Shown here in pieces: positions 6,937-24,514 of a DNA stretch of 64,000 nucleotides; the stretch's first letter is position 1; each line of letters begins with the position of its first letter. The DNA is taken from the NCBI GenBank assembly GCA_021791545.1, contig JAJYWL010000016.1, forward strand, positions 219,704 to 283,703, in the 5' to 3' direction. The position numbers and the translations under genes were made by a program. The notes below the pieces were generated by a model that saw only the letters and a program-made list of their open reading frames with translations, searched no databases and was not told the DNA's origin. The stretch comes from a bacterium. Its GTDB lineage: Bacteria; Patescibacteriota; Microgenomatia; Levybacterales; UBA12049.

Positions 6937-6937
6937 T

Positions 6938-7051
6938 ATGAAAGTACAAGCAAGCGTAAAACCAAGATGCATGAAGTGCAGAATAATTAGAAGAAAGGGA
7001 GTTGTCAGGATTGTCTGCGATAATCCAAGACACAACCAGAGACAAGGTTAA
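6938..7051 (+). CDS. rpmJ: 50S ribosomal protein L36 (37 aa; not in ORF track)
   Basis: Manual translation [37 protein letters not shown] with CxxC..C..H pattern. Lies between infA and rpsM. Confidence 0.85.
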
Positions 7052-7053
7052 TT

Positions 7054-7446: not shown

Positions 7447-7447
7447 T

Positions 7448-7849
7448 ATGGCAAAAGATACTAAACAAGTAAAGACAAAAGCAAAAAAGAAAACACTTTC
7501 GGTTTCCGAAAGAGGTAAAGTGTTTGTATCCGCAACTTTCAACAACACTCTGGTAACAATAACAAACGAAAAGGGTGACACCGTCGCCTGGAGCTCTGCC
7601 GGAGCAGCAGGATTCAAGGGAACAAGAAAGTCTACTCCTTTTGCCGCAACAACAGCAGTAGAAAACGTAGCAAAAAAAGCAGTAGAAAGAGGAATAAAAA
7701 CAGTAGAAGTTTATGTTAAGGGACCCGGATCCGGAAGAGACGCAGCGTTAAGAGCTGTAAAATCCGCAGGACTTTCTATCTCATTGATTGCAGATCTAAC
7801 ACCTATCCCACACAACGGACCTAGAGCAGAGAAAAGGAGAAGAATTTAA
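7448..7849 (+). CDS. rpsK: 30S ribosomal protein S11
   Basis: S11 motifs (VTITNEKGD.., [12 protein letters not shown]). Confidence 0.92.
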
Positions 7850-8457: not shown

Positions 8458-8474
8458 TGATAAAATATTAAACT

Positions 8475-9395: not shown

Positions 9396-9443
9396 CCCTA
9401 ACCTTGTATTGTACCTCGTGAAGACCTGTTCCAATTTTTTAAT

Positions 9444-9923
9444 ATGAAAAAAAGCGTATTCGGCAGAAAATTTAAAAGGGATGTAGACGAGAGGAAAGCT
9501 CTTTTTAAGAACTTGGTTTCGTCTCTTATTTTAGAGGAAAGAATTGAAACTACAGAACAAAAAGCAAAAGCTATAAAAGCTGATGTTGAAAAGTTAGTAA
9601 CAAAAGCAAAGAAAAACACACTTAAAGAAGGAGAGAATATAACTCCCAAAGCCCTTAAGAAAATGATTGAAAGTGTAGCTCCAAGATTTAAAGACAGAAA
9701 CGGCGGATACACAAGAATAACAAGAGTAGGAAAAAGATTCGGCGACGATGCATTCATGGTAGTTTTGGAATGGGTTGAAAAAGCACCGGTAGTTTTGGTA
9801 AATACAGAAAAAGGAACAGCTAAAAAAGCTGCACCGGAAAAGAAAGAAATAAAAAAAGAAACCCCTAAAAAGACAGCAAAACCAGCGCCAAAGAAAAAAG
9901 AAGTGAAGGAGAAAAAGAAATAA
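9444..9923 (+). CDS. rplQ: 50S ribosomal protein L17 with about 50-aa Lys/Glu-rich C-terminal extension
   Basis: L17 core (RKFKRDVDERKALFKNL..) followed by a KKAAPEKKEIKKETPKK tail. Confidence 0.88.
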   Translation: MKKSVFGRKFKRDVDERKALFKNLVSSLILEERIETTEQKAKAIKADVEKLVTKAKKNTLKEGENITPKALKKMIESVAPRFKDRNGGYTRITRVGKRFGDDAFMVVLEWVEKAPVVLVNTEKGTAKKAAPEKKEIKKETPKKTAKPAPKKKEVKEKKK

Positions 9924-9924
9924 T

Positions 9925-10353
9925 ATGAAATCGTCTTCTGCAACAAAGTTAAGTGAAATTAAAAGAGAGTGGCATTTAGTAGATGTTAATGAAAAGATAT
10001 TGGGAAGAGTTGCAACAGAAATTGCACTTCTTTTAATGGGAAAATCAAAAGCTAATTTTGTTAAAAACCTTGATTGCGGAGATTATGTTGTAGTTGTAAA
10101 TGCAAAAAAGATTAAAGTAACAGGAAACAAAGAAACACAGAAAAAATATTTCAGACATTCAGGATATCCCGGAGGATTTAAGGCAGAAGCATTTGATAAA
10201 CTATTAGAGAGGAAACCTGAAGAAATAATAATACATGCAGTTTCAGGTATGCTTCCTCAGACAAGATTAAAAGCACAGATGCTTAAAAGATTACATGTAT
10301 TTGCAGGAGAAGAACATAAATTTGCAGACAAATTTAAAGTAGAGGCTAAATAA
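9925..10353 (+). CDS. rplM: 50S ribosomal protein L13
   Basis: WHLVDVNEKILGRVAT motif. Confidence 0.9.
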   Translation: MKSSSATKLSEIKREWHLVDVNEKILGRVATEIALLLMGKSKANFVKNLDCGDYVVVVNAKKIKVTGNKETQKKYFRHSGYPGGFKAEAFDKLLERKPEEIIIHAVSGMLPQTRLKAQMLKRLHVFAGEEHKFADKFKVEAK

Positions 10354-10354
10354 A

Positions 10355-10798
10355 ATGGCAGAAAAGAAAAAAGGAGATTACATTTTTGCATCGGGAAAAA
10401 GAAAAGCGGCAGTCGCAAGATTGAGGCTTTATAGTGCTCTTTCTGGAGTAGTTATCGGAACAAACATAGTTAAAAAAGGTGATATTTTTGTAAACGGTAA
10501 GAAAGCGGAAGAATACTTCTCAGACAAAGTTTCTCAAATGAAAATCAACGAACCTTTAAAGATCACAAATACTACTGATAAATATGCTATATCTGTAAAA
10601 CTCGAAGGTGGAGGAGTTCAAAGCCAACTCGATGCATTTGTTCATGCTATATCAAGAGCATTATCTAGTATAGACGATAAAAATAAAGCAATCCTCAGGA
10701 AAAAAGGTTTCCTTACAAGAGATGCAAGAGTAAGGGAAAGAAGAAAAGTAGGAATGGGTGGAAAAGCCAGAAGACAGAAACAATCTCCAAAGAGGTAA
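10355..10798 (+). CDS. rpsI: 30S ribosomal protein S9
   Basis: C-terminus ARRQKQSPKR is typical of uS9. Confidence 0.9.
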   Translation: MAEKKKGDYIFASGKRKAAVARLRLYSALSGVVIGTNIVKKGDIFVNGKKAEEYFSDKVSQMKINEPLKITNTTDKYAISVKLEGGGVQSQLDAFVHAISRALSSIDDKNKAILRKKGFLTRDARVRERRKVGMGGKARRQKQSPKR

Positions 10799-10801
10799 TA
10801 C

Positions 10802-11149
10802 TTAGCCTACTTCCTCAAGATATTCTTTTAAAGCAACAGCATTATTATGTTCTTCATTTTTTGCTGAAAAAAGGAGTGTTATATCCTCCTCACCTTTAAG
10901 TTCTATTAATTGTTTTATCTCTTCCTTCCTTTCTTTTAATTCCAAGAAATATTTTTTCCTGAATTCTTGCCATTTAGGATCTTCATGATTAAACCATTTT
11001 CTTAAATCTGTGCTAGGAGCCACCTCATTGATCCATAAATCTACTTTTGCGTCTTTTTTAGATATCCCTCTTGGCCACAGTCTATCTACAAGTATTCTTA
11101 GTCCATCTTCTTCTAAAGGTTCGTCATACACTCTTTTTACTTTTATCAT
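10802..11149 (-). CDS. DUF488 (YeaO-like) family protein
   Basis: [31 protein letters not shown] signature. Confidence 0.7.
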
Positions 11150-11194
11150 GGATAAATTTTACTAAGGGTTTGTAAGTAGAGTGTTAGAGGATGT

Positions 11195-12229
11195 TTAGCT
11201 TTTTCTTTCGCCGATTATATTTATTAAGGCAGAGAATTTTTCTTTTCCTTCTATTGAAATTTCACCTTCATCAACAATTTTTTGTGCTTTACTCAAGTTT
11301 TCTTCTATCAATTTTTTGCCTTCTTCAAAAGCTCCGGATTGAGTAAAGACATTTCGAAGGGTTTCATAATCATTAGATGAAACTTCCTTTCCGAAATATT
11401 CCCTTAGTTTTTCTTTCTGTTCATCCGTTCCATTATGGAAAACAAAATTTGTGAAGAATGTGGGTTGGTTTGCAGCAATATCTGTAAATACACTTTTATG
11501 TAACACTTTAGGATCTCCCGTTAAATCAAGCATATCGTCCTGCATCTGAAATGCAAAGCCTAATTTTTCCCCCAGGTTTCTGCAGAAATCAAAGAAGTCT
11601 TTATCTGCCAAAGATGCTCCTACTTGTAAAGGTTTAATGAATGAATATCCAGAGGATTTTAGAAGAATCTTTTCATTTATTTCTTCATCATTTACAGACT
11701 CTTTGGTAGTTAAATCAATATCTACCATTTGCCCCATGATTACCTCGTCTGTCATTTGATAGAAAAGTTCTTTTGTCTTAGGATTTGTTTTATCAAATAA
11801 TTGCATTGCCCAAACAACTAGTACGTCTCCTACGAGAACTGCTTGTGAATATGCTACGTGCTTTAAATCTCCTGTTCTTTGTTCTTCTTTTAGTTTTTCT
11901 AAAACAAAAGAATTTATTGTACTTACGTTATGTCTTGTGGAAGCCTTATCCATAAAATCGTCATGAACAAGAAGGGAATTATGTAAGACTTCTAGGGCAA
12001 TAAGGTAATCCCAAATTTCATCTAAATTGTTTCCTTCTAAAGAGGAGTACATAAGGTAGGCAAGATATGGTCTCAATCTTTTTCCTCCAGCAAGTATTTC
12101 TTTTGTGTGGTTTGAGAAATCTGTTATGAAAGGATTTGATGTCTGAGAGGTAAATACTGAGAATTTTTTATTGAGAAACTCCTGTAGTTTTGGATCAAAA
12201 ACCTCTTTAAATTCTTTAAGGGAAAACAT
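11195..12229 (-). CDS. polyprenyl (isoprenyl diphosphate) synthase, trans-IPPS family
   Basis: Two Asp-rich motifs: LLVHDDFMD and FQMQDDMLD. Start trimmed to an internal ATG (MFSLKEF). Confidence 0.75.
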   Translation of the reverse strand: MFSLKEFKEVFDPKLQEFLNKKFSVFTSQTSNPFITDFSNHTKEILAGGKRLRPYLAYLMYSSLEGNNLDEIWDYLIALEVLHNSLLVHDDFMDKASTRHNVSTINSFVLEKLKEEQRTGDLKHVAYSQAVLVGDVLVVWAMQLFDKTNPKTKELFYQMTDEVIMGQMVDIDLTTKESVNDEEINEKILLKSSGYSFIKPLQVGASLADKDFFDFCRNLGEKLGFAFQMQDDMLDLTGDPKVLHKSVFTDIAANQPTFFTNFVFHNGTDEQKEKLREYFGKEVSSNDYETLRNVFTQSGAFEEGKKLIEENLSKAQKIVDEGEISIEGKEKFSALINIIGERKS

Positions 12230-12394
12230 AATAAAGTGAGTCGGCCTGAGGGACTTTCTTTTGAACACTTTCTGCCTTGGATAGATAAGATTATGAATGC
12301 TTATCAAATCAAAGAAGAAAATTCAATAGATTTTATAAATCCAACAGGGCATTCTGACGAATATTATAGGAGAAAAATAAACTAAAAGAAAGAG

Positions 12395-12604
12395 TTATAG
12401 AGGAAATGTTAATTTTATTCCTAATGCTTTGGCAATATTATTTATAATGTTCCATCTGGGGGTTGGTTCTCCTCTTTCAATTCTTGCGTAGTAATTAACA
12501 TGTATACCGGCTTTTTTTGCCACCTGTAATTGTGTTAAATTTTGTTCTTCCCGTGCAGATCTAAATTTTTCTCCTAGTTTTTTTATATCTACAGAACTAT
12601 CCAT
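12395..12604 (-). CDS. XRE-family HTH transcriptional regulator (69 aa)
   Basis: QNLTQLQVAKKAGIHVNYYARIERGE helix-turn-helix motif. Confidence 0.75.
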   Translation of the reverse strand: MDSSVDIKKLGEKFRSAREEQNLTQLQVAKKAGIHVNYYARIERGEPTPRWNIINNIAKALGIKLTFPL

Positions 12605-12766
12605 ATCGATTGTATTATATCATGTAATGTAAAAATTTGAGATTTAAGATGATTTCGACTTCAGCTTTTTATATCAAAATATTTTAATAACTTGACTTTG
12701 TGTTTTAATATCGGTTAGGATATAATCATTGATGCGGGTGTGGGTTTCTTGTCCATGACCCGCATT

Positions 12767-13588
12767 TTATTTACTCAGTTCCCACACAGAAAAATAGCTC
12801 GGTTTGTGATAAGTTTTATTTTGAGCTAAGCTACTAGTCTCCAATTTTTGTTTTAAATTATCAACTACTATTTCTTGTTTCTCAGAAAGTTTATCGGATA
12901 TTAATCCTGTTGATTTTTTGAAATCGTACATTACACAACCCAATAAAATATCTACTACCTGTAATAATAAAGACGAATGTGATTCTAGTCTACTTACGCC
13001 AAATACCGAATCAGGCATTTTATTTTTTGTTAATCTGTATTTAATTGCATCTGTCAATGACCGCTCAAATGATTTTTTAATATTTGTTGGCCTGGTTAGG
13101 TCATCAGCAAGTACGCAAATTCCACAAGGAGAAATATTTTTTATGTTATTTGCAATCAACATAGAAGCTTGGAGAATGTATGTTTCCCAAGGATTAATTA
13201 CTGGTTGCCATTTAGATTTATTATCTGCATGTTTTTGTCTATCAATAACAAGCGCACAAAATCTGACATTTGAAAATTTAAAATAATTATCTAATAAAGA
13301 GCTATAAATTGTATTATTAGTTGAATTAATATACTTAAATTTTAATTCGAAATTTCTTGTACTTTTGGCAATTTCAGCAATTTGTTCGTATTCCGCATTT
13401 TTTGTTAAATCCGCAATTCTTGCTGTTTTCTGTGCACGGGCAATATCTTTTGCTTTATCATAAAATGGCTTCATAGAATCATAGAAATCACCAATTTCAT
13501 CATCAACCAAAAGAAGTCCCAATCCAAAATATCTTTCTTGAGAAGAATTTCCACTTTCATCAATAAATGCAAAATAGTTTTTCGACAT
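12767..13588 (-). CDS. DUF3800-like protein (RNase H-like fold predicted)
   Basis: N-terminal FAFIDESGN motif characteristic of DUF3800. Start set at the internal ATG downstream of a TTGACC-N18-TATAAT promoter. Confidence 0.55.
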   Translation of the reverse strand: MSKNYFAFIDESGNSSQERYFGLGLLLVDDEIGDFYDSMKPFYDKAKDIARAQKTARIADLTKNAEYEQIAEIAKSTRNFELKFKYINSTNNTIYSSLLDNYFKFSNVRFCALVIDRQKHADNKSKWQPVINPWETYILQASMLIANNIKNISPCGICVLADDLTRPTNIKKSFERSLTDAIKYRLTKNKMPDSVFGVSRLESHSSLLLQVVDILLGCVMYDFKKSTGLISDKLSEKQEIVVDNLKQKLETSSLAQNKTYHKPSYFSVWELSK

Positions 13589-13606
13589 AAATTCTAGAAT
13601 AGCCAA

Positions 13607-13636
13607 ATTATACGCTCGGTTAAGCTTTAAGGTCAA
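13607..13636 (-). promoter_or_regulatory. promoter TTGACC-N18-TATAAT for DUF3800 gene
   Basis: Hexamers read on the minus strand, 18 nt upstream of the ATG at 13588. Confidence 0.45.
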
Positions 13637-13694
13637 GTTAAGCAGAGATTAATTAAGCTTGACAGTATTAAATAAATACTGATAATCTAAATAT

Positions 13695-14498
13695 ATGGAT
13701 CCAAGACCACCATCAGAGCCAGGACAAAGTCCAACGGAGGGGCAAGGCGGAGTACCGCCAGTAGAACAACCAACATCAGAAACCGTAGGAACATTTAAAC
13801 CGGGATTAGTTGAGAGACTAGACTCTGCAAGGAATCAATTAGGTGCGTTAGAGCAAGAGGCTGAACGAAGCATGCAGGAGTTAACGCATGGTCTTCGTAG
13901 TGTTGCTAAGAAGGCAGTTAGCGAATTGCCTGTTACAGCTATCACTATAGCAAGAGAACCTGAAAAGATGCGGGTAGAGGAGGTAAGCGATAAGCCTTCC
14001 GTGATAAGACAAGATCGGGAAGAAGTTCGTGATGGTGTTTTTGTATCAGGTGATGGAAAAAGTGTAAAATTACATGTAAAAAATACAGGCACATTTTATC
14101 AGCCAATTGACGAAACTGATACAAAAAGTGTTGAATTTCTTACTAGTTATTATGGTAAAGACATGGCGAGCATACGTAGACGCTATATGGAGCTTCATGT
14201 TCCAGATGATCCCGAATTAATAGTTTCAATAGATTCTTTATGGAACCCTAACAGTTTTATTATTCGTAGGGGTACATCAAAAGATGAAGACGATCAAATA
14301 AAAGTAGGTAGGCGTAATGATGGTAGGGTGGGTGTAGAGGTTGGTTTGTTTGCCTCCGATATTGGTGATCCATTTGATATAGTAAGAAGAACTTTGGATT
14401 TTACTAAATCCGCAACCCTGAAACCCGTGGAAAATCAAGCGCAAACTCCACCACCTACGCCACCGGCTCAACCAGCAGAAGGTATGCCGCAGAGTTAA
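13695..14498 (+). CDS. hypothetical protein, Pro/Glu-rich termini, GC-rich codon usage
   Basis: 267-aa ORF. Composition is clearly GC-richer than its surroundings. No recognisable domain. Confidence 0.5.
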   Translation: MDPRPPSEPGQSPTEGQGGVPPVEQPTSETVGTFKPGLVERLDSARNQLGALEQEAERSMQELTHGLRSVAKKAVSELPVTAITIAREPEKMRVEEVSDKPSVIRQDREEVRDGVFVSGDGKSVKLHVKNTGTFYQPIDETDTKSVEFLTSYYGKDMASIRRRYMELHVPDDPELIVSIDSLWNPNSFIIRRGTSKDEDDQIKVGRRNDGRVGVEVGLFASDIGDPFDIVRRTLDFTKSATLKPVENQAQTPPPTPPAQPAEGMPQS

Positions 14499-14652
14499 TG
14501 ATTTATCCATTAGCTTGAAAATAGCCACGAACAGGTTTAACTTGATATAAATTACGTTGCAACAATAGGTCTTCTTGATGCTTTTTATATAGTTAGGATT
14601 CTATTATTATAATTATCTTGTAAAAATACGCACATTCTTATAAACTCTACTC

Positions 14653-15567
14653 ATGGATCCGACTAAAGAACATTCTCTGCCTCCTAATCCCATTGAGCAA
14701 AAAGTTAAGGATGCGTTTGCAGATTATCCAAGTACTACACAAAGAGGAATTACTTCGGTATTAGAAATGCAACGAAAGGCGTGGCAAAGACTAAGAAGTA
14801 ATCCAGGAGACATGATAACAGGAGTAGTAGTTTCGGAGGGACTTGCTTATCAAACTTCAATTACCAGTGTAGAGATTCCTAAGCGGGAACTCTCTCCCGA
14901 AGAAAAGCTAGCTTATACAAAGTTTCAAGAATTAATCGAACCTTATAAACGTACTAAAGTTTATGGGTTTCCTTCGGGTGATGAACCAAATACACGTTTT
15001 TATCTATCGCTAAAAGATGGCTTGCAGTCAGTTGGATTAATGACTGATTTAACCACAAAGCTTTTGGATTTACATAAACAAGGAAAGCTACCTTTCTTTA
15101 TGTATAAATTTGATAGCACCGACGAAGAAGGAACAATTAGATTTGATCCTCAATATAGAGATAAGGGAGCTTCGCCAATATTATATGTTCCAAATGCAGA
15201 TGTTGAAATTACGAATCAGATATTAGAAGAATTATCAAATCAATATCCCGAAGCATTTTTGCCGCAAGATGCACCTTTTAAATATCCTTCCCACGGGCAA
15301 ATAAATGAAGGTTGGCACATTTCAATGGAGGCTTCTGATTTAAGTGAACAATTTAAAACGCCCGAACAAGGAATGAGGAAAGCTTCTAGTGATTTTCTTA
15401 TGTCTCTTGGTCTTACAAAAGAGTGGATTCCTGTACAATCTTTAGATGCTATGAATCTCAGAAAATCTTGGGAAAAATCAGTACTTAAAGTTCATAGGCA
15501 ACCTCAAACGCCCTGGATCACATTAAACAGTGGATTAATCCCACCAATCTTGACAAACTCTAGTTAA
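14653..15567 (+). CDS. hypothetical protein (304 aa), GC-rich
   Basis: Long ORF starting ATGGATCC like its neighbour. No recognisable domain. Confidence 0.5.
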   Translation: MDPTKEHSLPPNPIEQKVKDAFADYPSTTQRGITSVLEMQRKAWQRLRSNPGDMITGVVVSEGLAYQTSITSVEIPKRELSPEEKLAYTKFQELIEPYKRTKVYGFPSGDEPNTRFYLSLKDGLQSVGLMTDLTTKLLDLHKQGKLPFFMYKFDSTDEEGTIRFDPQYRDKGASPILYVPNADVEITNQILEELSNQYPEAFLPQDAPFKYPSHGQINEGWHISMEASDLSEQFKTPEQGMRKASSDFLMSLGLTKEWIPVQSLDAMNLRKSWEKSVLKVHRQPQTPWITLNSGLIPPILTNSS

Positions 15568-15596
15568 ATATATTGTATCAATTGCTTTAAACACAA

Positions 15597-15938
15597 TCAC
15601 TTTGAATACTCTGCAAACAGCTTTTCTTTTTCTTCCAAAATATGGTGCAGTTGTTTTTCCATGTTTCTAATAGCCTCCCATACTTCCGGTTTGTTTCTTA
15701 AATCCAAAACATTGTGAAGTTCTGCATATTGGGCTAATAATTGGTGATGTCTATTTTCTAATGCCTTTTTAATATATTGAAACTGGATGTGTCTACTAAG
15801 TGTATGCCACTCTGGAAAATTTGCCAAAAAATTTGGATCATATTCTCCCATTTCAATTGTCTTTTCCAAGGTCATATTCGGGCTTTGAGATGGTGTCCCT
15901 CCGCCTATGCTCTGTTCGCTTTCTCCTTGTTCTTCCAT
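15597..15938 (-). CDS. hypothetical protein (start at internal MEEQGE)
   Basis: ORF only. Confidence 0.35.
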   Translation of the reverse strand: MEEQGESEQSIGGGTPSQSPNMTLEKTIEMGEYDPNFLANFPEWHTLSRHIQFQYIKKALENRHHQLLAQYAELHNVLDLRNKPEVWEAIRNMEKQLHHILEEKEKLFAEYSK

Positions 15939-16091
15939 AATGAAATTATATACTATTTTATAGTATAGGCTTGATATTAAAATTACAATGTAATTACAGA
16001 TTAAAGCCAAATTAAAAACAGATTTAATCTAATTTTGACAAAGAATACGAACAGGAATTAACTAATAATTGTTTTATAATATAATTACTTT

Positions 16092-16478
16092 ATGGACAAA
16101 AGAATCGGAACAGTCTGCTTTATAATTCAGGATAATAATATACTTCTTGCTTTAATTGAGTACGGACCAAACGACAGAAAATGGAATGGAATTGGAGGAC
16201 ATGTTGATTCTAATGAATCCCCTGAAGATGCAGTAGTTAGGGAGTTTTCAGAAGAAACATATATTAAAGTTAATAAAAATGATCTTATTAAGGTATTGGA
16301 AATAAATAGCGATATTAAATTATTGGTATATAAGACAAATCATTGGCAGGGAGAAATAAAAGCAAAAGAAATATCGCTTAAAGAATTTAGGTGGTTTGAT
16401 AAAGACGAAATACCTTTCGATCAAATGTATCCCGACAATAAGGAGTGGTTACCAAAGCTATTTGTAAATGAACCTTAA
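16092..16478 (+). CDS. NUDIX hydrolase
   Basis: Nudix box GGHVDSNESPEDAVVREFSEETYI. TATAAT lies 6 nt upstream of the ATG. Confidence 0.8.
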   Translation: MDKRIGTVCFIIQDNNILLALIEYGPNDRKWNGIGGHVDSNESPEDAVVREFSEETYIKVNKNDLIKVLEINSDIKLLVYKTNHWQGEIKAKEISLKEFRWFDKDEIPFDQMYPDNKEWLPKLFVNEP

Positions 16479-17511
16479 TGATTTTAAATCATATTTAGAA
16501 GAACAAACTAGGAAGGATTTATTTTCTGGGTCCGTTTTAATTACAAAAGACGATAATACGTTTCTTGAATACGCATCCGGTTTTGCTAATAAAGAAAAGC
16601 AAATTAAAAATAATATAAACACAAAGTTTAATTTAGGTTCTATGAATAAAATGTTCACTGGGGTTGCTATTGTCCAACTAGCACAAGACGGAAAATTATC
16701 TTTTCAAGATATAGTCGGAAAGTTTATTCCCAATTACCCTAATAAAGAGGTTTTAGAAAAAGTTACGATCCATCAATTACTGACACATACTTCGGGGTTG
16801 GGACATTACCTAAATGAAAAGTATATGGAAAAAAGAACCCAACTTAAAACAATAGATGATTTTATTGCTCTTTTTGCTGAAGAACCTCTTTTGTTTGAAC
16901 CCGGAACAAAATGCATTTACAGCGCAAACGGATACACCTTACTTGGAAAAATAATTGAAGTTATTTCTGAAATCAGCTATTACGATTATGTTAAACAAAA
17001 TATTTTTCTTAAAGCGAATATGTTAAATACTGATTCCTACGAAATTGACTCCAATAACATACCTGAAGATATTGCAATCGGATATACACGAAGAATTGAT
17101 ATCCAGGGTAATATGAATGAAGAAGGGGAACGCAAGGATAATCTTTGGATTAACCTTATCAAAGGAGATTCCGGAGGTGGTGGTTATTCTACTTGTCCAG
17201 ATTTACTTAATTTTTCAAACACTTTGTTAAATAATAAATTATTAAATCCGGAAATGACTAAAATAGTTTTAACCCCATATGTAAACGAAGGCACTAAAAA
17301 CGGTCAGACTAAAAATGAAGGTTATGGATTCCAGGTTTGGGATATTAATGGCATTAAAAGAATCGGTCATCCGGGAAGATTTGCCGGAGTTAATACCCGT
17401 TTTGATGTGTATCCTGATTTAGGGATAACAGTTGTAGTTTTGGCAAATTATGATCCACCAGCTGCGTTTGATATTGCAGAGAACGCTACAAAACTAATTA
17501 CAACCAGTTAA
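16468..17511 (+). CDS. serine hydrolase, beta-lactamase/PBP-like family
   Basis: SMNK (SxxK) active-site motif, plus YSANG and HPG elements. Length 347 aa. Confidence 0.7.
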   Translation: MNLNDFKSYLEEQTRKDLFSGSVLITKDDNTFLEYASGFANKEKQIKNNINTKFNLGSMNKMFTGVAIVQLAQDGKLSFQDIVGKFIPNYPNKEVLEKVTIHQLLTHTSGLGHYLNEKYMEKRTQLKTIDDFIALFAEEPLLFEPGTKCIYSANGYTLLGKIIEVISEISYYDYVKQNIFLKANMLNTDSYEIDSNNIPEDIAIGYTRRIDIQGNMNEEGERKDNLWINLIKGDSGGGGYSTCPDLLNFSNTLLNNKLLNPEMTKIVLTPYVNEGTKNGQTKNEGYGFQVWDINGIKRIGHPGRFAGVNTRFDVYPDLGITVVVLANYDPPAAFDIAENATKLITTS

Positions 17512-17570
17512 TTTTCTATAATATTTTATCTCCTAATGTTTACTCTCTAACAGATGCATCTAAAAATACA

Positions 17571-18032
17571 TTATTTTGTTAACTCTATTGGGGGTCTTTG
17601 GGGAATTTCCTCATTTGTATTTGGTATTTCAAAAATCACATACAACCCGCTACCAGTCATTTGAGTAGGAATATGTATTGGTATATATTTTTCTTTAGTA
17701 AAATTTTCTCCAAATTTTTTCTTTACTTCTTCGTGTACGCTTGCACCCATTACGCTGCCAACGGATATTGTGCCTTTTGGAATCAGCTGATCCACGCTAT
17801 GAATATTTAATTCTTTCATTTTAGGATAAATTTCCTGAATTTGTTCAAAACACAAAAGGATTATGTTTAAAATTTCATAGCCAGCTCTAATATAGTCATC
17901 TTCCGTTGGTTTTTCTTCCGTTCCCTCGATGCTAAAGTCTTGAATCTTTTTTAATGCGGGTAACGAGCTGATATTCGTATTCGAAAAGTTAAACCCTTGA
18001 GGAAAATAATTTTTAATATAATATTCCGCCAT
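17571..18032 (-). CDS. hypothetical protein
   Basis: ORF only; start at internal ATG (MAEYYIKNYF). Confidence 0.35.
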   Translation of the reverse strand: MAEYYIKNYFPQGFNFSNTNISSLPALKKIQDFSIEGTEEKPTEDDYIRAGYEILNIILLCFEQIQEIYPKMKELNIHSVDQLIPKGTISVGSVMGASVHEEVKKKFGENFTKEKYIPIHIPTQMTGSGLYVIFEIPNTNEEIPQRPPIELTK

Positions 18033-18106
18033 AATTAATACACTATTACAATTTCTAAGAAATAGCAATGTCCGAATAGGATTTAAGCATAGTTCTAACT
18101 AATTAG

Positions 18107-18160
18107 AATACGTCAGCTGCCTTTGACATTGCAGTAAAAGTATTTAGCTTTCTTTTCTAA
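18107..18160 (+). pseudogene. 3' remnant of a second beta-lactamase-family gene (encodes ..SAAFDIAVKVF..)
   Basis: 19/22 nt identity to 17463-17484 (the 3' end of the intact gene), in the same frame and encoding AAFDIA. Confidence 0.4.
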
Positions 18161-18187
18161 TAATAATTTAAATAAAATTTTTATGTT

Positions 18188-19579
18188 CTAATATTCAATC
18201 GCCTTGGGAAACTGTCTTATTTGGGGTGTTGGTTGAACAAAGGTACTTCTATAATTTCTGTAATCAAGAGTTGCCAGTTCTGTTGCTCTTTTTCTTCTTA
18301 TATTGGTTTCGCCGTTCTCACCTACCATTCCCGGAAATAGTGCTTTAAAATATCTGTCGGGGAATAATGGATCTTGTGAAACTGCTGTATCCAACTTTCT
18401 TGCAATATCTGGCGGGACTGCGACAGATAGACGAACCTGCACCCCTCCACGAGTATCATAAGGCGTTTCTGTATACATGTAATAATCGTAGGATGACCAG
18501 TCTTTTTCTCCATGTTTTCCTTGAAAAGTTTTCGCTTCCTCTCCGCTTCCCGTATAACTAGTTGCCTGAAAATTACTCGCAACCCACATTTGCCTATTTA
18601 CATGGTCATATGGAGACCAAACATTATGGTTGGGAGAACTATAATCATAATCAAATTGATATCTGGGTAAAAATTTTTGTAATGCCCGATAGTCCGCTTC
18701 ATTACCGACAATATTGCTTCCCATAGAAAAACCTTGTCCTGGATATTGACCTAACCCATTGGTCTTATCTACAGGATATAGAAAGCCCCAAAGCTGACCA
18801 AAACCATTATCATGAGTTGCCTTAGCAAGCTCATTAGCTATTTGTTCCTGTTGTTCTTCGGCAGATTTTGTTTCTGAAGTTCTTGAGCTTACATTTGCAT
18901 CAGACTGTTGCTCTGTTGATCGTGGCACTTCATTCTCTTCACGTATTAGTCTATCTTCTAAATTTCTAGCTGCCGCAATACGGAATTTTAATTCAGCCGC
19001 GTCACCAGGTGACAATTCATCATTATCTAATATTCCATGCCATTCATAAATTAATCCTTGTAAAATATCAGTTGCTTCCGAAGCTTGCATTTTTTTTGCT
19101 TCTGGAAGAAAATCTTCCATCTCAGTACTGAGAATGTCTCCGCCTGAAGCAATTAGCTCCTGAGTTTTTTCATCCATTAAATCAATTGCTTTCATACCAG
19201 CTATCATATCTGCTACTTCAATTTCCTTTTCAGTTAATTGAGCTTGTTTAATCGCATGCATATGTTCAGGACTATTTCTATACCCAGGATTATTTCTTGT
19301 ATTTTTTAATAAACTGGCATTTTGTTTTTTAAGAGTATCCTCAAGACGCAAGGTAACATTAGTCAAAGAGCCTGGTATTGGAGTTGTTTCTGAAGAATCG
19401 CCACCTTCAGCAAGTCTTTTAATAACATCGTCGGGATTTGCTCCTTGGTTAACTTCATTACCAATACTTTCCCCCGTTGCCTTAGCAGTTGCATCTACTC
19501 TTGGAACTTCAGGTCGAATATTCGGCTTTGTAGTTTCTTGTCTGACAATAGGTTGTTCTGGTGTTGGTAAATCAGGCAT
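18188..19579 (-). CDS. hypothetical protein, 463 aa, Pro/Glu-rich N-terminus, Tyr/Trp/Asp-rich C-terminal domain
   Basis: Long ORF translationally coupled to the upstream small ORF (8-nt overlap). Confidence 0.55.
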   Translation of the reverse strand: MPDLPTPEQPIVRQETTKPNIRPEVPRVDATAKATGESIGNEVNQGANPDDVIKRLAEGGDSSETTPIPGSLTNVTLRLEDTLKKQNASLLKNTRNNPGYRNSPEHMHAIKQAQLTEKEIEVADMIAGMKAIDLMDEKTQELIASGGDILSTEMEDFLPEAKKMQASEATDILQGLIYEWHGILDNDELSPGDAAELKFRIAAARNLEDRLIREENEVPRSTEQQSDANVSSRTSETKSAEEQQEQIANELAKATHDNGFGQLWGFLYPVDKTNGLGQYPGQGFSMGSNIVGNEADYRALQKFLPRYQFDYDYSSPNHNVWSPYDHVNRQMWVASNFQATSYTGSGEEAKTFQGKHGEKDWSSYDYYMYTETPYDTRGGVQVRLSVAVPPDIARKLDTAVSQDPLFPDRYFKALFPGMVGENGETNIRRKRATELATLDYRNYRSTFVQPTPQIRQFPKAIEY

Positions 19580-19922
19580 TTTTATCCTCCTTTTGCAGGC
19601 TTTGTTTTAAAAGCTTTTCTGCTTCGTCAAATTTTCCCGATTTTATCATCATTTCTGCATGTTTGGCAACCAATTTATCTACTTCTGATTCGTGTTCTGA
19701 TAATAAGGGAAGTATGGCTTGAGAAAGTTCTGTAAAATGGTCATCTAAAGTTGGAGCAATTTCGTATATTTGTTCTAATGTTAACGGTGGATGAAGTTTC
19801 TCCAATAGCAATTTTGCAATTTGTTGTGCCCGGTCTAAATCCATTTGCCCGTTTTGTAATTTCTGGGCAATAATTTCCAGAATATCCTTTTCCAGTTGTT
19901 TTCTTTTTTCTTCAGCATCCAT
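19572..19922 (-). CDS. small acidic all-helical protein (116 aa)
   Basis: ORF lying 2 nt after the kinase-like gene and overlapping the next start. Confidence 0.45.
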   Translation of the reverse strand: MDAEEKRKQLEKDILEIIAQKLQNGQMDLDRAQQIAKLLLEKLHPPLTLEQIYEIAPTLDDHFTELSQAILPLLSEHESEVDKLVAKHAEMMIKSGKFDEAEKLLKQSLQKEDKNA

Positions 19923-19924
19923 AA

Positions 19925-20440
19925 TTATTGTATATTTTTCTTTATTTCATTAATACATTCTTCTAAGGCGTCCTCTTCAGTATTTAGAAAAATTGCATTT
20001 TCTATTGGATTATTAATTACTTTATTTAGTAGACTTTCAATTACATTTCTGTCCATTGGTGGTCTAATACCATTTGTCTGGTCAGATCTTTCTTTATCAC
20101 GCTTGATTAATGTTTCAATTGAACAATCAAGCTGATAAACAAAATATTTAATATTTCTTTTCTTAGCAATTTCAATTGCATTATTTGCATACTCAGATTT
20201 TTTAAATATTCCTTCGTAAACAACTGTATAACCTCTGTCCAACAGGTTTTCTAAAACTGCATAACATGTTTTAAAAACCTCATCTAAAGCCCTATCGTCG
20301 CTTGGGTTATCGAAAAACTCTTTTAAGTTATCTGTTTTAAACCAAACAACTTTGTTGTCAAAATCCCTTAATTGTTTTGCAATGGTTGTTTTGCCACTTG
20401 CAGGAGCACCCCGTAAGACTATTAAAGTTTGCATCATCAA
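19925..20440 (-). CDS. P-loop kinase-like ATPase (AAA_33/zeta-toxin-like fold)
   Basis: Walker A GAPASGKTT at the N-terminus; 171 aa. Confidence 0.6.
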   Translation of the reverse strand: MMMQTLIVLRGAPASGKTTIAKQLRDFDNKVVWFKTDNLKEFFDNPSDDRALDEVFKTCYAVLENLLDRGYTVVYEGIFKKSEYANNAIEIAKKRNIKYFVYQLDCSIETLIKRDKERSDQTNGIRPPMDRNVIESLLNKVINNPIENAIFLNTEEDALEECINEIKKNIQ

Positions 20441-20503
20441 AATTATATCATTTTTAGGAGTATTTGCTTTCTTTTATTAAAGGGCAGTTTAATTAGAAAT
20501 ATC

Positions 20504-21403
20504 TTATTCTTCCTTAATTATTTTCCAAACCTTTTCTCCTCCTAAGATTGTATCTGTCATAATCTTTTGATATGTAGTTAATAAAAAGGTAATTTTTGGT
20601 TCTTCATAGCTATACATAAGTTCGTCATTTATAAATTTTATGTAAAAGTTCATAATATGAAAATTAGGAAAGATAAGTATTATTTTAGGAAACTCTCCAT
20701 GCATGTTTTCGTAAAGAGCTAATTCGTTCTTTTCTTCTTTAAGTCTTATGTATTGTTTAATCCTATGTTTAATTGCATATTTTGGCATTTTTGGATCAAA
20801 GACTTCAATCATAAAACAATTATCTTCTATGGTTTCATTCCCTTTATATTTAAATTTTTCTACATATAGATCCGGGATAAACTGCTTAATGTTATTAAAT
20901 TCTTCAGTTGAACTTACTTGATTTAATTTCTCAATCCAGTTTTCAGTTTTACTAGAAATTTCATATTCAATCTCCGATTCTTTTTTACCTTTATTTTTAA
21001 GGTATTCAAAGATTTTAAATTGGGTATAAATCTCAGAGATTAGGATGCAGTGATTTATAAAAGTTTTAGAAGCATTTTTATCTTCATAGAACTTTTTAAG
21101 ATGTTTAATTTCAACTTCCCCTTCATTATTAGAGAATGATTGATAATTATATCTTGCCCAGATAATACCGTTGTTATTTAAGTAATATATTGCAGGTTTA
21201 GTATTTTCTAATAGCTTATGCGAATATATTCTTCCTAAATATTCTTTAGTAACTAAATCCTTAAGCCATACATTAATTCTTTTAGCATCTTTATGTCTTA
21301 ACAGCCTTTGTATTTGATGTCTATTAACAAATCTTAATTTAATTATTATTTCAAGTATTTCTTTTTGTTTATTTGTTATTTCAGGAAGTATTTTGTAGTT
21401 CAT
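20504..21403 (-). CDS. replication-relaxation (Replic_Relax) family protein
   Basis: N-terminal wHTH pattern ITNKQKEILEIIIKLRFVNRHQIQRLL; about 300 aa; very AT-rich. Confidence 0.55.
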   Translation of the reverse strand: MNYKILPEITNKQKEILEIIIKLRFVNRHQIQRLLRHKDAKRINVWLKDLVTKEYLGRIYSHKLLENTKPAIYYLNNNGIIWARYNYQSFSNNEGEVEIKHLKKFYEDKNASKTFINHCILISEIYTQFKIFEYLKNKGKKESEIEYEISSKTENWIEKLNQVSSTEEFNNIKQFIPDLYVEKFKYKGNETIEDNCFMIEVFDPKMPKYAIKHRIKQYIRLKEEKNELALYENMHGEFPKIILIFPNFHIMNFYIKFINDELMYSYEEPKITFLLTTYQKIMTDTILGGEKVWKIIKEE

Positions 21404-21642
21404 ATTGTATATTGTTTTTATGAGGCAGTTTATTAGAGGCAGTATTATTTACTTTAAGGGGATTATATCACTTTTGATTATCTTTTTATCTTTACTTACT
21501 TATTTTCTTTATTCTATATTTATATAGAAAAGGAAGGAATTATAATTTACTAATTTACCCTCAAAAATAGTATCATTCGTAGCTTCAGGCTTGTCCTAGC
21601 CGGAGGGGACAGAAATTAAGCGAACCACAAGATTATTGCCTC

Positions 21643-21672
21643 TTGACAACTATCTCGATTGAGATATATACT
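21643..21672 (+). promoter_or_regulatory. promoter TTGACA-N18-TATACT overlapped by nested TATCTC/GAGATA palindromes (operator-like)
   Basis: Hexamers and inverted repeats read directly (AACTATCTCgattGAGATAtatacTATCTCcaatGAGATAGTT). Confidence 0.45.
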
Positions 21673-21693
21673 ATCTCCAATGAGATAGTTAAT

Positions 21694-22017
21694 ATGCAAG
21701 CCTTAGAATTACCAATAACTCAAACTACGCACTACGAAGACAATATTTCTACTAATGAATTTACTTCTCAAGCCCTGACCACAAACCCCTTCAATGTACT
21801 AGATAATTCTTTCAATCGAATTTTTAACCAAAACTTTGAGGAAAAGATAGTTCTTCAAATGAGAAAAATGCTAGGAGAAAAAGCAAATACGCTTACTGAT
21901 GAGAAAGTCGAATGCTTGGCAACAGAATTTCAATTTCTTATTAATACCTGGCTTGATGAATATGAAAGAGATGTTTTTGGGGGAATGACTTTAAAAGAGG
22001 TTTTAAACGAAAAATAA
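21694..22017 (+). CDS. small hypothetical protein co-transcribed with the serine recombinase
   Basis: ORF ends 2 nt before the recombinase ATG; start at the first ATG after the promoter. Confidence 0.4.
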   Translation: MQALELPITQTTHYEDNISTNEFTSQALTTNPFNVLDNSFNRIFNQNFEEKIVLQMRKMLGEKANTLTDEKVECLATEFQFLINTWLDEYERDVFGGMTLKEVLNEK

Positions 22018-22019
22018 AC

Positions 22020-23549
22020 ATGAGAAATATTATTAATAATGATACAAAACGGGCAATTATCTATATTCGTGTTTCAACTGATGAACAGGTTGATAATTTC
22101 TCCTTGGAAACCCAACAAAAAATATGCATTCAGGAGGCAGAAAGACGTGGGATGGAGATTGTCAAAACTTTTAGAGAAGAAGGGAAATCTGCAAAGACAA
22201 TAATGGGAAGACCGGTTTTGATGGAACTTTTGGAGTTTTGTCGAAAAAATAAAAGAAATATTGATGCCGTAATTGTTTATAGATTAGATAGGGTTTCTCG
22301 TCAATTGCAAGATTATTTAGCTATTCGAAAAAGACTTGCAGAATATCAAATTACAATTATTTCCGCATCTGAACCCACCGGCAATAGTCCTACCGAAAGA
22401 TTTATTGAATCAATGCTTGCAAGTTTTGCTCAAATGGACAACGATGTTAGAGGCGAAAGAGCCAAGAATGGCTTAAAAGCAAGATTTTTAGCAGGACTTT
22501 CAAGCGGCACTCTTCCTCTTGGTTATATATACGAAAACGGATATGCGGTAAAAGATCCAAACACTTGGGATAAAATAAAAAACGCTTGGGAGCTTATGGC
22601 AACCGGCACAAAAACTCTTCAGGAAATGGCTACGCTTATGAATGAATGGGGTTTAAGACAAAGATATAATATTGGCGAACAAATTATTCGGGCGCAAGCT
22701 TTAAGCCGGATGTTTAGGAATAAATACTACATTGGTATTTTAGTTTCAAGTAAATATCCCGAACAGGTTCGCGCACAACATTTACCGATGATTTCCGAAG
22801 CCATTTTTTATAGAGTCCAGGCAGCAATTGACGGAAGAAGTAATATTGTTAAAACACAAGTTTCTAGGAGAAATAAAGATAATAAAGAGTTTCCTTTAAG
22901 AAGAATTTTAGTTTGTGATCATTGTGGAAATCCTGTAACAGGAGGATGGAGTAAGGGTAAACTTACTAGATACGCATATTATCGTTGCCAAAAAGGTTGT
23001 CGTGTTCCTTCTATTTCTGCAGATAAAGTACACGAGGCAACGACTCATTTTCTATCAGGTATAACACCAACAAAAGAAGGATTAGATGCTTTCATTGCGC
23101 TTTTAAGAAGAACATATTACGAGCGAGTCACACAATTACAAAAAAGAAGAGATGAAGCAGATAACGAACTGAAAAAATTATATGAACTTCGCCAGTCTTT
23201 AATTCAGAAAAATTTAGATGGTATTTATTCCGATGAAATATTCAAAGAACAGAACAAGCTTATTGAAGAGCAAATTGCAAATGTCCAAATTACTAAAGAT
23301 GATGCATTACTTGCAAAATACAATCTTGAGGCAATTATTAAATTTATGAAAGAAAAATTTTCAAATTTAGGAAAAACTTATCAGATGTCAAACTTAAGTC
23401 AACTCCGAGTGCTCTTGTGTTCAATTTTCCCCGCTGGTATGCGTTGGAGCTATCCGGGCTACTACAACACCGAAATTAGCCCGATATATCAATCTATTCG
23501 TATGTTTGATTGTAATCAGATCTCCTCTTGTCGGGGTGCCGAGAATTGA
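22020..23549 (+). CDS. large serine recombinase (integrase)
   Basis: N-terminus AIIYIRVSTDEQ resolvase catalytic motif, a recombinase domain, and a zinc ribbon CDHC..C..C; 509 aa. Confidence 0.85.
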   Translation: MRNIINNDTKRAIIYIRVSTDEQVDNFSLETQQKICIQEAERRGMEIVKTFREEGKSAKTIMGRPVLMELLEFCRKNKRNIDAVIVYRLDRVSRQLQDYLAIRKRLAEYQITIISASEPTGNSPTERFIESMLASFAQMDNDVRGERAKNGLKARFLAGLSSGTLPLGYIYENGYAVKDPNTWDKIKNAWELMATGTKTLQEMATLMNEWGLRQRYNIGEQIIRAQALSRMFRNKYYIGILVSSKYPEQVRAQHLPMISEAIFYRVQAAIDGRSNIVKTQVSRRNKDNKEFPLRRILVCDHCGNPVTGGWSKGKLTRYAYYRCQKGCRVPSISADKVHEATTHFLSGITPTKEGLDAFIALLRRTYYERVTQLQKRRDEADNELKKLYELRQSLIQKNLDGIYSDEIFKEQNKLIEEQIANVQITKDDALLAKYNLEAIIKFMKEKFSNLGKTYQMSNLSQLRVLLCSIFPAGMRWSYPGYYNTEISPIYQSIRMFDCNQISSCRGAEN

Positions 23550-23601
23550 ACTCGGCCCACACGCACCCCATGCGCGCATTCTACCGATAAACTACACCCC
23601 G
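23531..23601 (-). tRNA. tRNA-Pro (anticodon GGG)
   Basis: Manual cloverleaf: 7-bp acceptor CGGGGTG/CACCCCG, anticodon stem CGCGC/GCGTG, loop AUGGGGU, T-arm CCGAG-UUCAAUU-CUCGG. No encoded CCA. Confidence 0.75.
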
Positions 23602-23663: not shown

Positions 23664-24152
23664 ATGGAATTTACTATTTGTCCCGGATGTGGAGTAAGAC
23701 TTCTTAAATCCGATTCTTTGCCTGAGAAAAAATTTAATTCTTCCAAAGAATGCTGGGAGTTATTCTGCCAGTTATCAGCTCTCACTCCAAATTATGATGA
23801 AGAATTTATTCATCAAATGGCAATAGATACATATGAAGCGCAGCATGGAGGAGGGGATACAAAAAATATTGCAGTAGTTTTTGGACTAGCAGGATTATAT
23901 CTCTCCTTAGAGAACAATTATTCAGGAAGACAAGTTCAAAAAGCTCATATGGTTCTAGGAGAGAAAAATAAAGAATGGCCAAAATTAGAACCTCCAACTT
24001 TTAATTGGGAATATACAGTTAAAGATGTTTTGGATTCTTCTTTAGAGAAAGGTTTAAAAGAAGAGATAAGGAAATGGGCAGAAGTTACATGGAAAGGTTG
24101 GGGAGAGCAGCAAAAGACAATTGAAGATATCTGTAACTACTATTTATCTTAG
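23664..24152 (+). CDS. hypothetical protein (162 aa)
   Basis: ORF; TATACT lies 6 nt upstream of the ATG. Confidence 0.45.
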   Translation: MEFTICPGCGVRLLKSDSLPEKKFNSSKECWELFCQLSALTPNYDEEFIHQMAIDTYEAQHGGGDTKNIAVVFGLAGLYLSLENNYSGRQVQKAHMVLGEKNKEWPKLEPPTFNWEYTVKDVLDSSLEKGLKEEIRKWAEVTWKGWGEQQKTIEDICNYYLS

Positions 24153-24514
24153 TTTTTCTTAAGAAGTTTTCTTGAATAGTTTCCGATTATTCCCAAAACT
24201 ATTCCGCAGGCTCCTCCGAAGACTCCCAAAGCCCCAAAGGGAATAAATCTTGTAACTACTGGAGTAGTTCCTGTATATCCATGAACCATGAAGAAGAAAG
24301 AAACAAAAAATCCGAATAGGAAACCGTTTAAAAGAGCATTTCTTATTGTTTTAGAGAAATATCCAATTGTTACACCTGCCACTGTCCAGATTATTAGGTT
24401 ATATACTGAGCCTGCAAGAATATATTTTGCTAAAAGTCCTAATACAATTCCGGCAACTATGGAATAGACCATTACTCTTTGTTCTTGCTTCATTAAATTA
24501 GGATAGCTCTCCAA
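24149..24514 (-). CDS. small integral membrane protein
   Basis: Four predicted hydrophobic helices. Confidence 0.45.
   Translation of the reverse strand: MESYPNLMKQEQRVMVYSIVAGIVLGLLAKYILAGSVYNLIIWTVAGVTIGYFSKTIRNALLNGFLFGFFVSFFFMVHGYTGTTPVVTRFIPFGALGVFGGACGIVLGIIGNYSRKLLKKN

Follow-up and report, generated by a model that had tools for sequence, protein, structure and literature searches.

Within the 64-kb window analysed here (the whole stretch of 64,000 nucleotides, positions 219,704 to 283,703 of contig JAJYWL010000016.1, assembly GCA_021791545.1), the block from 12245 to 23534 is very probably an 11,290-bp integrative and mobilizable element (IME) that a large serine integrase placed directly behind the 3' end of the mature tRNA-Pro(GGG). 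An original prediction, made from the letters of the window, had placed an integrated, plasmid-like accessory island at 12767-23601. An empty site in related genomes that lack the island genes supports such an element at tRNA-Pro. The predicted block itself stands, but its true left end lies at 12240-12245, with an XRE gene inside the island, and the tRNA gene is host DNA.

Ends of the island and the empty site

Homologues of the polyprenyl synthetase that flanks the island on the left were found on two contigs, L171 and L172, which are the closest relatives seen (RecA 84-86% identical). Both have the gene order rplQ-rplM-rpsI-LytB-polyprenyl synthetase(-), tRNA-Pro(GGG)(-), recA-recX-rny, and in both just 5 nt separate the ATG of the polyprenyl synthetase gene from the tRNA-Pro 3' end. 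The empty site reads '...gtacat aatct TGTCGGGGAGCC...' in L172 (core alignment form 'cat aatct TGTCGGGG') and '...taacat aatat TGGTCGGGGTGC...' in L171 (core alignment form 'cat aatat TGGTCGGGG'). The left junction of the window reads '...aaacat aataaagtga GTCGG cctgagggac...', with GTCGG at 12240-12244, and the right junction '...gatctcctctt GTCGG ggtgccgag...', with GTCGG at 23530-23534. Since the flanks are contiguous in L171 and L172 and GTCGG is present at both ends, the island is 12245-23534, bracketed by a 5-bp direct repeat that corresponds to nucleotides 70-74 of tRNA-Pro (CCG, the discriminator A, and C). Judged from this alignment, the island ends are mapped to the base and the block is an insertion between the polyprenyl synthetase gene and tRNA-Pro. 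The original prediction had looked to related genomes for the left junction and to an att core repeat at the ends, and both were found.

The body of tRNA-Pro is host DNA, and element DNA replaces only its 3' trailer. The integrase gene is at the tRNA-proximal end of the island and reads into the tRNA, so that the predicted overlap of the two 3' ends was recovered, at 19-20 nt. tRNA-Pro(GGG) is located upstream of recA in eight relatives, and none of the genes between 12.4 and 24.5 kb of the window is present in L171, L172 or six other relatives. Three contigs (L087, L088 and L089) cross the left junction from the polyprenyl synthetase to the XRE gene, and a further one (L004) starts within the polyprenyl gene, covers the left junction and ends inside the tRNA. 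As the island genes recur in independent assemblies of four samples, the arrangement is no assembly chimera.

Other boundary markers were tried and rejected. The first relatives, retrieved through RecA (L006, L028, L010 and L011), keep rplQ-rplM-rpsI ... tRNA-Pro-recA-recX-rny, and the genes that they carry between rpsI and tRNA-Pro are unrelated housekeeping genes absent from the window. A long direct repeat of the tRNA 3' end is not present in the window, and only 2 of 36 loci reached p <= 0.05, which is the chance level; apparent matches in L137 and L141 were dropped, as they are homologous positions inside a conserved coding gene. An inverted repeat between the island ends was not found.

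Gene content and type of the element

The Replic_Relax protein of the island matches its profile with 37.0 bits against a cut-off of 25.3, over profile positions 1-179 of 191. The family behind this profile, PF13814, corresponds to the MobC relaxase superfamily (PMC5357655), and on this profile match the protein is a MobC-type relaxase, the mobilization gene of the element. Searches with the family proteins as queries and with Pfam detected no coupling protein, VirB4 or other type IV secretion system (T4SS) homologue in the whole 64-kb window. No phage structural, packaging or lysis gene (capsid, portal, terminase, tail) was detected among the island ORFs with PHROGs and Pfam, the relaxase used as query had no match among viral contigs, and no replication gene of the element's own was recognisable. 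The island is thus a discrete insertion, missing at the same site in relatives, that has its own integrase and relaxase and no mating-pore genes. An integrative and conjugative element (ICE) would have the VirB4 ATPase and coupling protein next to the relaxase, and both are missing here. With a relaxase and an integrase but neither a coupling protein, a T4SS nor phage genes, the element is classed as an IME and not as an ICE, a prophage or an autonomous plasmid.

The integrase module

The integrase has an N-terminal resolvase domain (PF00239, E 1.8e-32), and the C-terminal Recombinase (PF07508) and zinc-ribbon (PF13408) domains both exceed their cut-offs. Across 41 family members, residues Y15, R17, V18 and S19 of the Y-x-R-V-S-T motif, which holds the nucleophilic serine, are invariant. 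The zinc-ribbon cysteines C299, C302 and C323 are likewise invariant, and C327 is present in at least 90% of sequences.

DNA similarity between loci carrying this integrase is limited to a module of ~2 kb that starts at the promoter and consists of a TTGACA -35 element, two 21-nt palindromic operators, the gene of a 107-aa protein and the integrase gene. The closest relative of the module, L091, is 86.5% identical to the window over 21636-23554; when short conserved blocks outside the module were searched between the two, the promoter block alone matched. The operator sequence varies by subfamily (TATCTC..GAGATA, TAGGCATATATGCCTA, ACTATA..TATAGT), and the layout of two palindromes is kept in most of L090-L170. 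Palindromes that covary within a constant layout imply a co-evolving dimeric repressor. An XRE gene is divergently adjacent to the integrase promoter in L173 and L175, and XRE homologues are also found within the elements L162, L163 and L094. These positions make the island XRE protein the likely repressor, binding the palindromic operators.

The small ORF is located directly upstream of int in 76 of 81 loci, and its C-terminal 60 aa are conserved. An AlphaFold2 model of the 107-aa protein has four helices (pLDDT 70.7), and neither a fold match in the PDB nor a sequence match was found for it.

An integrase family at many tRNA genes

More than 1100 relatives of the integrase were retrieved at E < 1e-30, the best 120 of which are 57-90% identical to it, whereas no integrase in 50,697 phage and 72,556 plasmid records exceeds 27% identity to it. 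Eighty metagenome loci and one IMG/VR locus were sampled, and tRNA adjacency was counted over the 58 of them that are non-redundant and extend 95 nt or more beyond int. A convergent tRNA gene is present at the int 3' end in 52 of these 58, the tRNA 3' end lying 10-18 nt before the projected end of int. The targets comprise 17 anticodons and ten identities (Leu, Glu, Pro, Phe, Lys, Arg, Ala, Met, Gly and Ser).

Near-identical modules (84-90% DNA identity) are found at different tRNAs, namely at tRNA-Leu in L126, tRNA-Arg in L132 and tRNA-Phe in L134. Further cases are L119 (Ala) and L120 (Glu), and L090/L106 (Phe) and L110 (Leu). The members of these three sets diverge right past the CCA (or CAA), the discriminator and 1-2 nt, and the divergence lies past the CCA, the discriminator and 3 nt for L148/L149 versus L150 and for L153 versus L155. 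These points agree with the 5-bp core of the window.

MobC relaxase homologues were detected by tblastn in 33 of the 81 loci, and in 26 of the 32 with at least 5 kb of sequence upstream. A VirD4/TrwB-like coupling protein of approximately 850 aa is present in 23 of the same 32. DUF2958 is found in 14 loci and a VirB4-containing T4SS block in five. The window element is a reduced, relaxase-only member of a large family; L094, L096, L162 and L163 are relaxase-only too.

Two other loci may be mentioned. The L173 element (OZ246394.1, a 1.61-Mb chromosome, 9198-11597) seemingly consists of XRE, small ORF and int only, about 2.3 kb between tRNA-Asn(+) and tRNA-Leu(gag)(-), and is a minimal or stripped-down version. 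The L090 contig (IMG/VR UViG_3300022555_000211, 2823-12824) carries ERF recombinase, replisome-organiser/SLT, Fic and glycosyltransferase genes beyond tRNA-Phe; this phage-like block, on the host side of the tRNA, probably accounts for the 'viral' label of the contig.

Putative attachment sites and probable crossover point

Positions in the att sites are numbered from the first nucleotide of the CCA-equivalent. The T-loop, T[CT][GA]AAC, occupies positions 19-24 in 60 tRNA arms. A motif of the same type, TNNNAC, is found at 24-29 in the attP reconstructed for the window and in the junctions of L131, L118, L161, L150 and L166, and at 23-28 in the L153 junction; the P' arm of the window shares 17 of 18 nt with the L131 arm. 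In 31 of 58 loci the P arm has a mirror motif, TT[TC][GA]A, whose first base is at -22. The symmetry axis thus falls at position 3, and GT is the sole dinucleotide both near the axis and within the repeat. The crossover dinucleotide is thus probably GT, that is, A73-C74 of the tRNA. For the LI/A118 Listeria integrase, the distance of the distal zinc-ribbon domain (ZD) motif from the crossover was described to be 5 bp shorter in attB than in attP (PMC3783163). The same arrangement is seen here, with a short core of 5 bp and a motif 5 bp closer in attB than in attP.

In six loci (L118, L131, L150, L153, L161 and L166) int is followed by a tRNA-like tip of 7-11 nt, beyond which the sequence is no longer tRNA. 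These loci may represent the element in excised or episomal form, its attP intact; among them, L150 is a contig of 43 kb that carries a VirB4 block. In two others, L158 and L175 (the latter on a 1.23-Mb contig), only some 24 nt of a tRNA 3' end come after int, the motif being at the attB spacing, and unrelated genes follow. Their arrangement suggests that a leftover piece of a tRNA 3' end is enough for targeting.

In 22 of 59 loci, compared to 13% of control segments, a short hairpin whose stem has 5 bp or more precedes the tRNA end by 3-11 nt. Within the 32 nt before the tRNA end the hairpin sequences differ and the palindromy is kept. This hairpin may be a tRNA trailer or terminator supplied by the element.

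Other genes of the island and base composition

The features of the island and its borders are listed in Table 1. Profile searches in Pfam agree with the genes named in the original prediction (XRE, DUF3800, NUDIX, beta-lactamase family, P-loop kinase, Replic_Relax and large serine recombinase). The two Pro/Glu-rich ORFs do begin, as stated there, with the same ATGGATCC, and they are not paralogues. A truncated second beta-lactamase copy, also announced, was not recovered, the best additional tblastn match being 15 aa long with E = 7.4.

Table 1. Features of the integrated element and its borders (window coordinates)
Feature	Position	Strand	Remarks
Polyprenyl synthetase (host flank)	11195..12229	-	Pfam PF00348; orthologues P0158/P0159 beside tRNA-Pro and recA in L171/L172
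attL core GTCGG	12240..12244	+	displaced native 3' tip of tRNA-Pro; left repeat copy; aligns with empty sites
Putative P' half-site of attP (element left end)	12245..12270	+	TTGAAC at 12261-12266, 5 bp farther from core than in tRNA arm
XRE-family helix-turn-helix regulator	12395..12604	-	Pfam HTH_3, E 7e-14; inside island
DUF3800 protein (cargo)	12767..13636	-	Pfam E 3e-10; like PADLOC PDC-M04A
Orphan ORFs, 267 aa (13695-14498) and 304 aa (14653-15567)	13695..15567	+	Pro/Glu-rich
Orphan ORF, 113-137 aa	15597..16010	-	no family match
NUDIX hydrolase (cargo)	16092..16478	+	Pfam E 9e-16; overlaps next gene
Beta-lactamase/penicillin-binding-protein-family serine hydrolase (cargo)	16468..17511	+	Pfam E 1e-50
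Orphan ORF, 165 aa	17571-18068	-	no family match
Orphan ORF, 463 aa	18188-19579	-	no family match; in relaxase operon
Orphan ORF, 116 aa	19572-19922	-	in relaxase operon; weak sub-threshold matches only
P-loop kinase, Zeta_toxin / AAA_33 / polynucleotide-kinase type	19925..20440	-	Pfam; PHROG polynucleotide kinase/ATPase
Replic_Relax (PF13814), MobC-family relaxase	20504..21403	-	Pfam 37 bits
AT-rich (about 25% GC) relaxase-integrase spacer, candidate origin of transfer (oriT)	21404..21642		short direct and inverted repeats
Integrase-operon promoter	21643..21690	+	TTGACA -35 (21643-21648) and two tandem 21-nt palindromes (21649-21669, 21670-21690)
Small helical protein, 107 aa, candidate recombination directionality factor	21694..22017	+	translationally coupled to int
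Large serine integrase, 509 aa	22020..23549	+	Resolvase, Recombinase and Zn_ribbon_recom; last 7 codons and stop from tRNA gene
Putative P half-site of attP, in int 3' end	23500..23529	+	inverted T-loop-like GTTTGA at 23504-23509; now tRNA 3' trailer
Small hairpin TGATT-gt-AATCA	23507-23518	+	within P half-site
attR core GTCGG	23530..23534	+	right repeat copy; probable crossover dinucleotide GT (tRNA A73-C74)
Host tRNA-Pro(GGG)	23531..23601	-	intact; B' half-site via acceptor 3' strand and T arm; TTGAAC at 23546-23551
Reconstructed attB			...GGGAAAACATAATAAAGTGA-GTCGG-GGTGCCGAGAATTGAACTCGG...
Reconstructed attP			...GTTTGATTGTAATCAGATCTCCTCTT-GTCGG-CCTGAGGGACTTTCTTTTGAACACTTTCTG...

The proposed role of the cargo in defence or host interaction comes down to weak matches to two untested PADLOC candidate families, of the DUF3800 protein to PDC-M04A (E 1e-12) and of the NUDIX protein to PDC-S07 (7e-15), and no partner components of the PDC-M04 or PDC-S07 candidate systems were identified in the island. 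A DUF3800 gene is also present inside the L091 element. For the six orphan ORFs no family was found in Pfam, PHROGs or PADLOC, the 116-aa ORF having weak sub-threshold matches only. The spacer between relaxase and integrase contains GTTT(T/A)T(A/T)(T/A)GAGGCA twice in tandem (window 21414-21441) and AGGnAnTATnATTTACT twice, 98 nt apart (window 21437-21551). These direct repeats could be oriT or binding-site repeats.

The mean GC content of the window is 35.5% (0.355). The stretch from 16 to 21.4 kb had been called extremely AT-rich, which is true of 20-21.5 kb (0.25-0.28 GC) but not of 18-19.6 kb (0.37-0.39), which exceeds the window mean. Tetranucleotide deviation is raised over the whole of 12-24 kb (z 1.2-2.2) and returns to baseline beyond. 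The two Pro/Glu-rich ORFs, the GC-rich part of the compositional mosaic that had been described, have a third-codon-position GC content (GC3) of 0.25-0.26, equal to that of host genes. With GC3 host-like and 18-19.6 kb not AT-rich, the GC mosaic of the island largely reflects the amino-acid composition of its proteins.

The RecA of the window is 80-86% identical to those of Levybacteria / Patescibacteria metagenome-assembled genomes, and the host is thus a bacterium of the candidate phyla radiation (CPR). tRNA-Pro(GGG), at 23530/31-23601(-), is the sole tRNA of the window (ARAGORN and Rfam, 50.7 bits). Between its 5' side and recA (window 23664-24514), a DUF5946 gene faces a 121-aa membrane ORF in convergent orientation. 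The corresponding gap is about 50-160 nt long and geneless in L006, L008, L011, L028, L171 and L172, so that the pair is a further small insertion, across this tRNA gene from the island. The stretch from rpsI to tRNA-Pro (window 10802-12229) differs in each relative, with DUF488 in the window, LytB in L171/L172 and GcpE/UppS/SurA_N/mevalonate genes in L006/L028. The island aside, this region is a hot spot of rearrangement.

Proposed mechanism

The following mechanism is proposed from the layout of the genes and sites. The two arms of attP would be the 3' end of int (P) and the stretch that is now 12245-12270 (P'). The integrase would cut at GT (tRNA A73/C74), whereby the whole tRNA would stay host-encoded and its 3' trailer would be replaced. 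The zinc-ribbon domain may read the near-universal T-loop (TCGAAC-like) as the attB motif and, in attP, a copy of the motif set 5 bp farther out. Use of the T-loop as attB motif would account for the presence of near-identical integrases at many different tRNAs, which would stay intact. The int operon would be transcribed from the TTGACA promoter, its two palindromic operators probably being bound by the XRE repressor of the element, and for the excision (directionality) factor the foremost candidate is the co-transcribed 107-aa helical protein. On the excised element, the MobC-type relaxase would nick oriT, probably in the AT-rich spacer at 21404-21642. As the element has no coupling protein or T4SS, its DNA would then need the conjugation apparatus of a helper. 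The remaining genes would be cargo: XRE/DUF3800, NUDIX, the beta-lactamase-family hydrolase, the P-loop kinase and the six orphan ORFs.

A broader proposal, which we regard as evenly balanced between right and wrong, is that this large serine-integrase family, possibly Patescibacteria-wide, consists of generalists that use the universal acceptor/T-arm of tRNA as attB half-site, with the T-loop as zinc-ribbon motif, and cut just past the discriminator. They could thus integrate next to nearly every tRNA gene, or a remaining 3' fragment of one, and leave it undamaged. The elements that these integrases belong to, with a MobC relaxase, a VirD4-like coupling protein and at times VirB4, would then be the 'missing' relaxase-bearing conjugative and mobilizable elements of the CPR.

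Weighing of the evidence

Several observations weigh against an IME with the sites and roles given above. Exact-protein look-ups showed that every contig with identical flank proteins also carries the island, and neither an empty allele nor an excised circle of the same species was seen among these contigs, so that the present mobility of this island copy is conjectural. The empty-site relatives are distant, with a polyprenyl synthetase only 46% identical, and the 11.3 kb may therefore have accumulated in several steps. The 5-bp repeat by itself is expected by chance about once per 3 kb. No oriT was identified, L091, whose module is closest to that of the window, showed no P'-like arm, and the P-arm motif is located within coding sequence, so that its conservation could stem from the protein. 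The roles of the 107-aa protein and of XRE are inferred from position only, and a 'CPR-wide' range of the family rests on few named records. Finally, 8.1 kb upstream of int, intergenic DNA of L162 (1878-1897) repeats 21 nt of the tRNA-Arg 3' end with 2 mismatches and 1 gap. A tRNA fragment at the far end would suggest a deeper crossover; alternatively, it could have been left by an earlier tyrosine integrase or by elements in tandem. A crossover in the T-loop with a repeat of roughly 20 nt, as read from L162, was rejected as a general rule, since both the 5-bp repeat of the window and the divergence points of the modules contradict it.

The absence of an empty allele also bears on the alternative that best survives, namely that the island is a fixed and decayed remnant, inserted once and no longer excising or transferring. 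This is possible, though we think it unlikely. The island is present in all samples with identical flanking proteins, its GC3 is wholly host-like, and it is missing the coupling protein and the DUF2958 protein of most family members. However, the integrase, small ORF, relaxase, promoter and operators are intact and evidently conserved, and both att half-sites have kept the expected motifs; relaxase-only members exist elsewhere in the family too.

The sharp end of inter-locus DNA similarity at the promoter, about 400-500 nt upstream of int, could be taken to mean that only the ~2-kb integrase module (promoter, small ORF, int and sometimes XRE) is the mobile unit, the other 9 kb being unrelated or older accreted elements. 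The confinement of the window-L091 identity to the module and the short L173 element between its two tRNA genes fit such a unit. We nevertheless find it improbable, because the distal end of the whole island (12245-12270) holds an attP-type half-site at attP spacing, 17/18 identical to the L131 arm, whereas no att-like site is found beside the promoter in the window. Moreover, the direct repeat brackets all 11.3 kb, relatives are without any of it, and the relaxase and coupling protein co-occur with the module in most loci.

That the island is a prophage or phage remnant with a serine integrase is very improbable: such integrases are common in temperate phages, and the L090 contig, with its ERF and replisome-organiser genes beyond the tRNA, was called viral by IMG/VR, but those genes are on the host side of the tRNA, the island ORFs have no phage structural, packaging or lysis match in PHROGs or Pfam, and the recurrent partners of the integrase are the relaxase, the coupling protein, DUF2958 and VirB4. 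A self-transmissible ICE is just as hard to credit, since VirB4 with several T4SS-associated genes, the coupling protein and the relaxase are found beside the same module in L156, L137, L141 and L164, but VirB4, the coupling protein and other T4SS homologues are missing from the element and its surroundings here.

Significance of the element

For the source genome, the ends of the island are now base-exact and its accessory genes can be told apart. tRNA genes are the textbook targets of tyrosine integrases, and here a whole serine-integrase family is found at tRNAs (52/58 loci, 17 anticodons). The recognition model is testable, the T-loop being the motif that would shift by 5 bp between attB and attP. 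Serine integrases are favoured in genome engineering, and one that lands behind a conserved tRNA feature without disruption could be a broad-host landing tool. Mobile elements of the CPR/Patescibacteria are little known, and the combination of integrase, MobC relaxase and coupling protein bears on whether the CPR T4SS conjugates DNA. A 2025 survey, which did not examine integrases or tRNAs, reported that Patescibacteria T4SS are almost devoid of relaxases; the most frequent type was MOBC, with 39 close to a t4cp gene (PMC12102498). No description of the integrase family was found in the open-access literature on CPR, serine recombinases and tRNA elements, and the family is apparently undescribed.

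Comparison with known systems

The original prediction had considered a recombinase that overlaps a tRNA 3' end a 'classic' integration signature, which holds for tyrosine integrases but is unusual for serine integrases (PMC7192596). Mageeney et al. (2020) noted that no t(m)RNA gene had been reported as the target of a serine integrase and that such targeting would need proof, with 14 of 297 cases predicted (PMC7192596).

Among described elements, the streptococcal IME_Class_8 (Coluzzi et al. 2017) combines a serine integrase, a MobC/PF13814 relaxase and a VirD4 coupling protein (PMC5357655), and the same three-part architecture is found in the fuller members of the window integrase family. 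However, IME_Class_8 elements insert into and disrupt protein genes (rumA, traG, maff2, snf2), none at a tRNA (PMC5357655), whereas the window element is behind a tRNA. Their hosts are Firmicutes, and the window copy differs further in having no coupling protein.

The large serine integrases of phages (Listeria A118/LI, phiC31, Bxb1) share the Resolvase, Recombinase and zinc-ribbon domains, the short att sites and the little identity between attP and attB. The attB motif set 5 bp closer, as in the Listeria A118/LI type (PMC3783163), is also shared with the window family. Each of these phage integrases has one specific site, usually in a protein gene, whereas the window family uses at least 17 tRNA genes. 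The window family further differs from them in that its attB motif coincides with the universal tRNA T-loop and in its constant small helical partner, which has no known fold match.

The tRNA islands and actinomycete integrative and conjugative elements such as pSAM2 (Islander-type) share with the window element the integration at a tRNA 3' end, the preserved tRNA function and the position of int beside the tRNA. They use tyrosine integrases, regenerate 20-60 nt of the tRNA and have a long direct repeat, whereas the window element has a serine integrase and a 5-bp repeat and replaces the trailer only. pSAM2 also has a NUDIX gene (pif). The Ccr enzymes of SCCmec, also large serine recombinases, place their element at the very 3' end of the conserved housekeeping gene rlmH, which stays active. 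They differ from the window element in the protein-gene target, in the two-subunit CcrAB or CcrC recombinase and in the absence of a relaxase module. The domain architecture and att logic of the window family are thus those of large serine integrases, and its gene set is that of an IME, or of an ICE in the fuller relatives; it is the target that differs from all described cases that were found.

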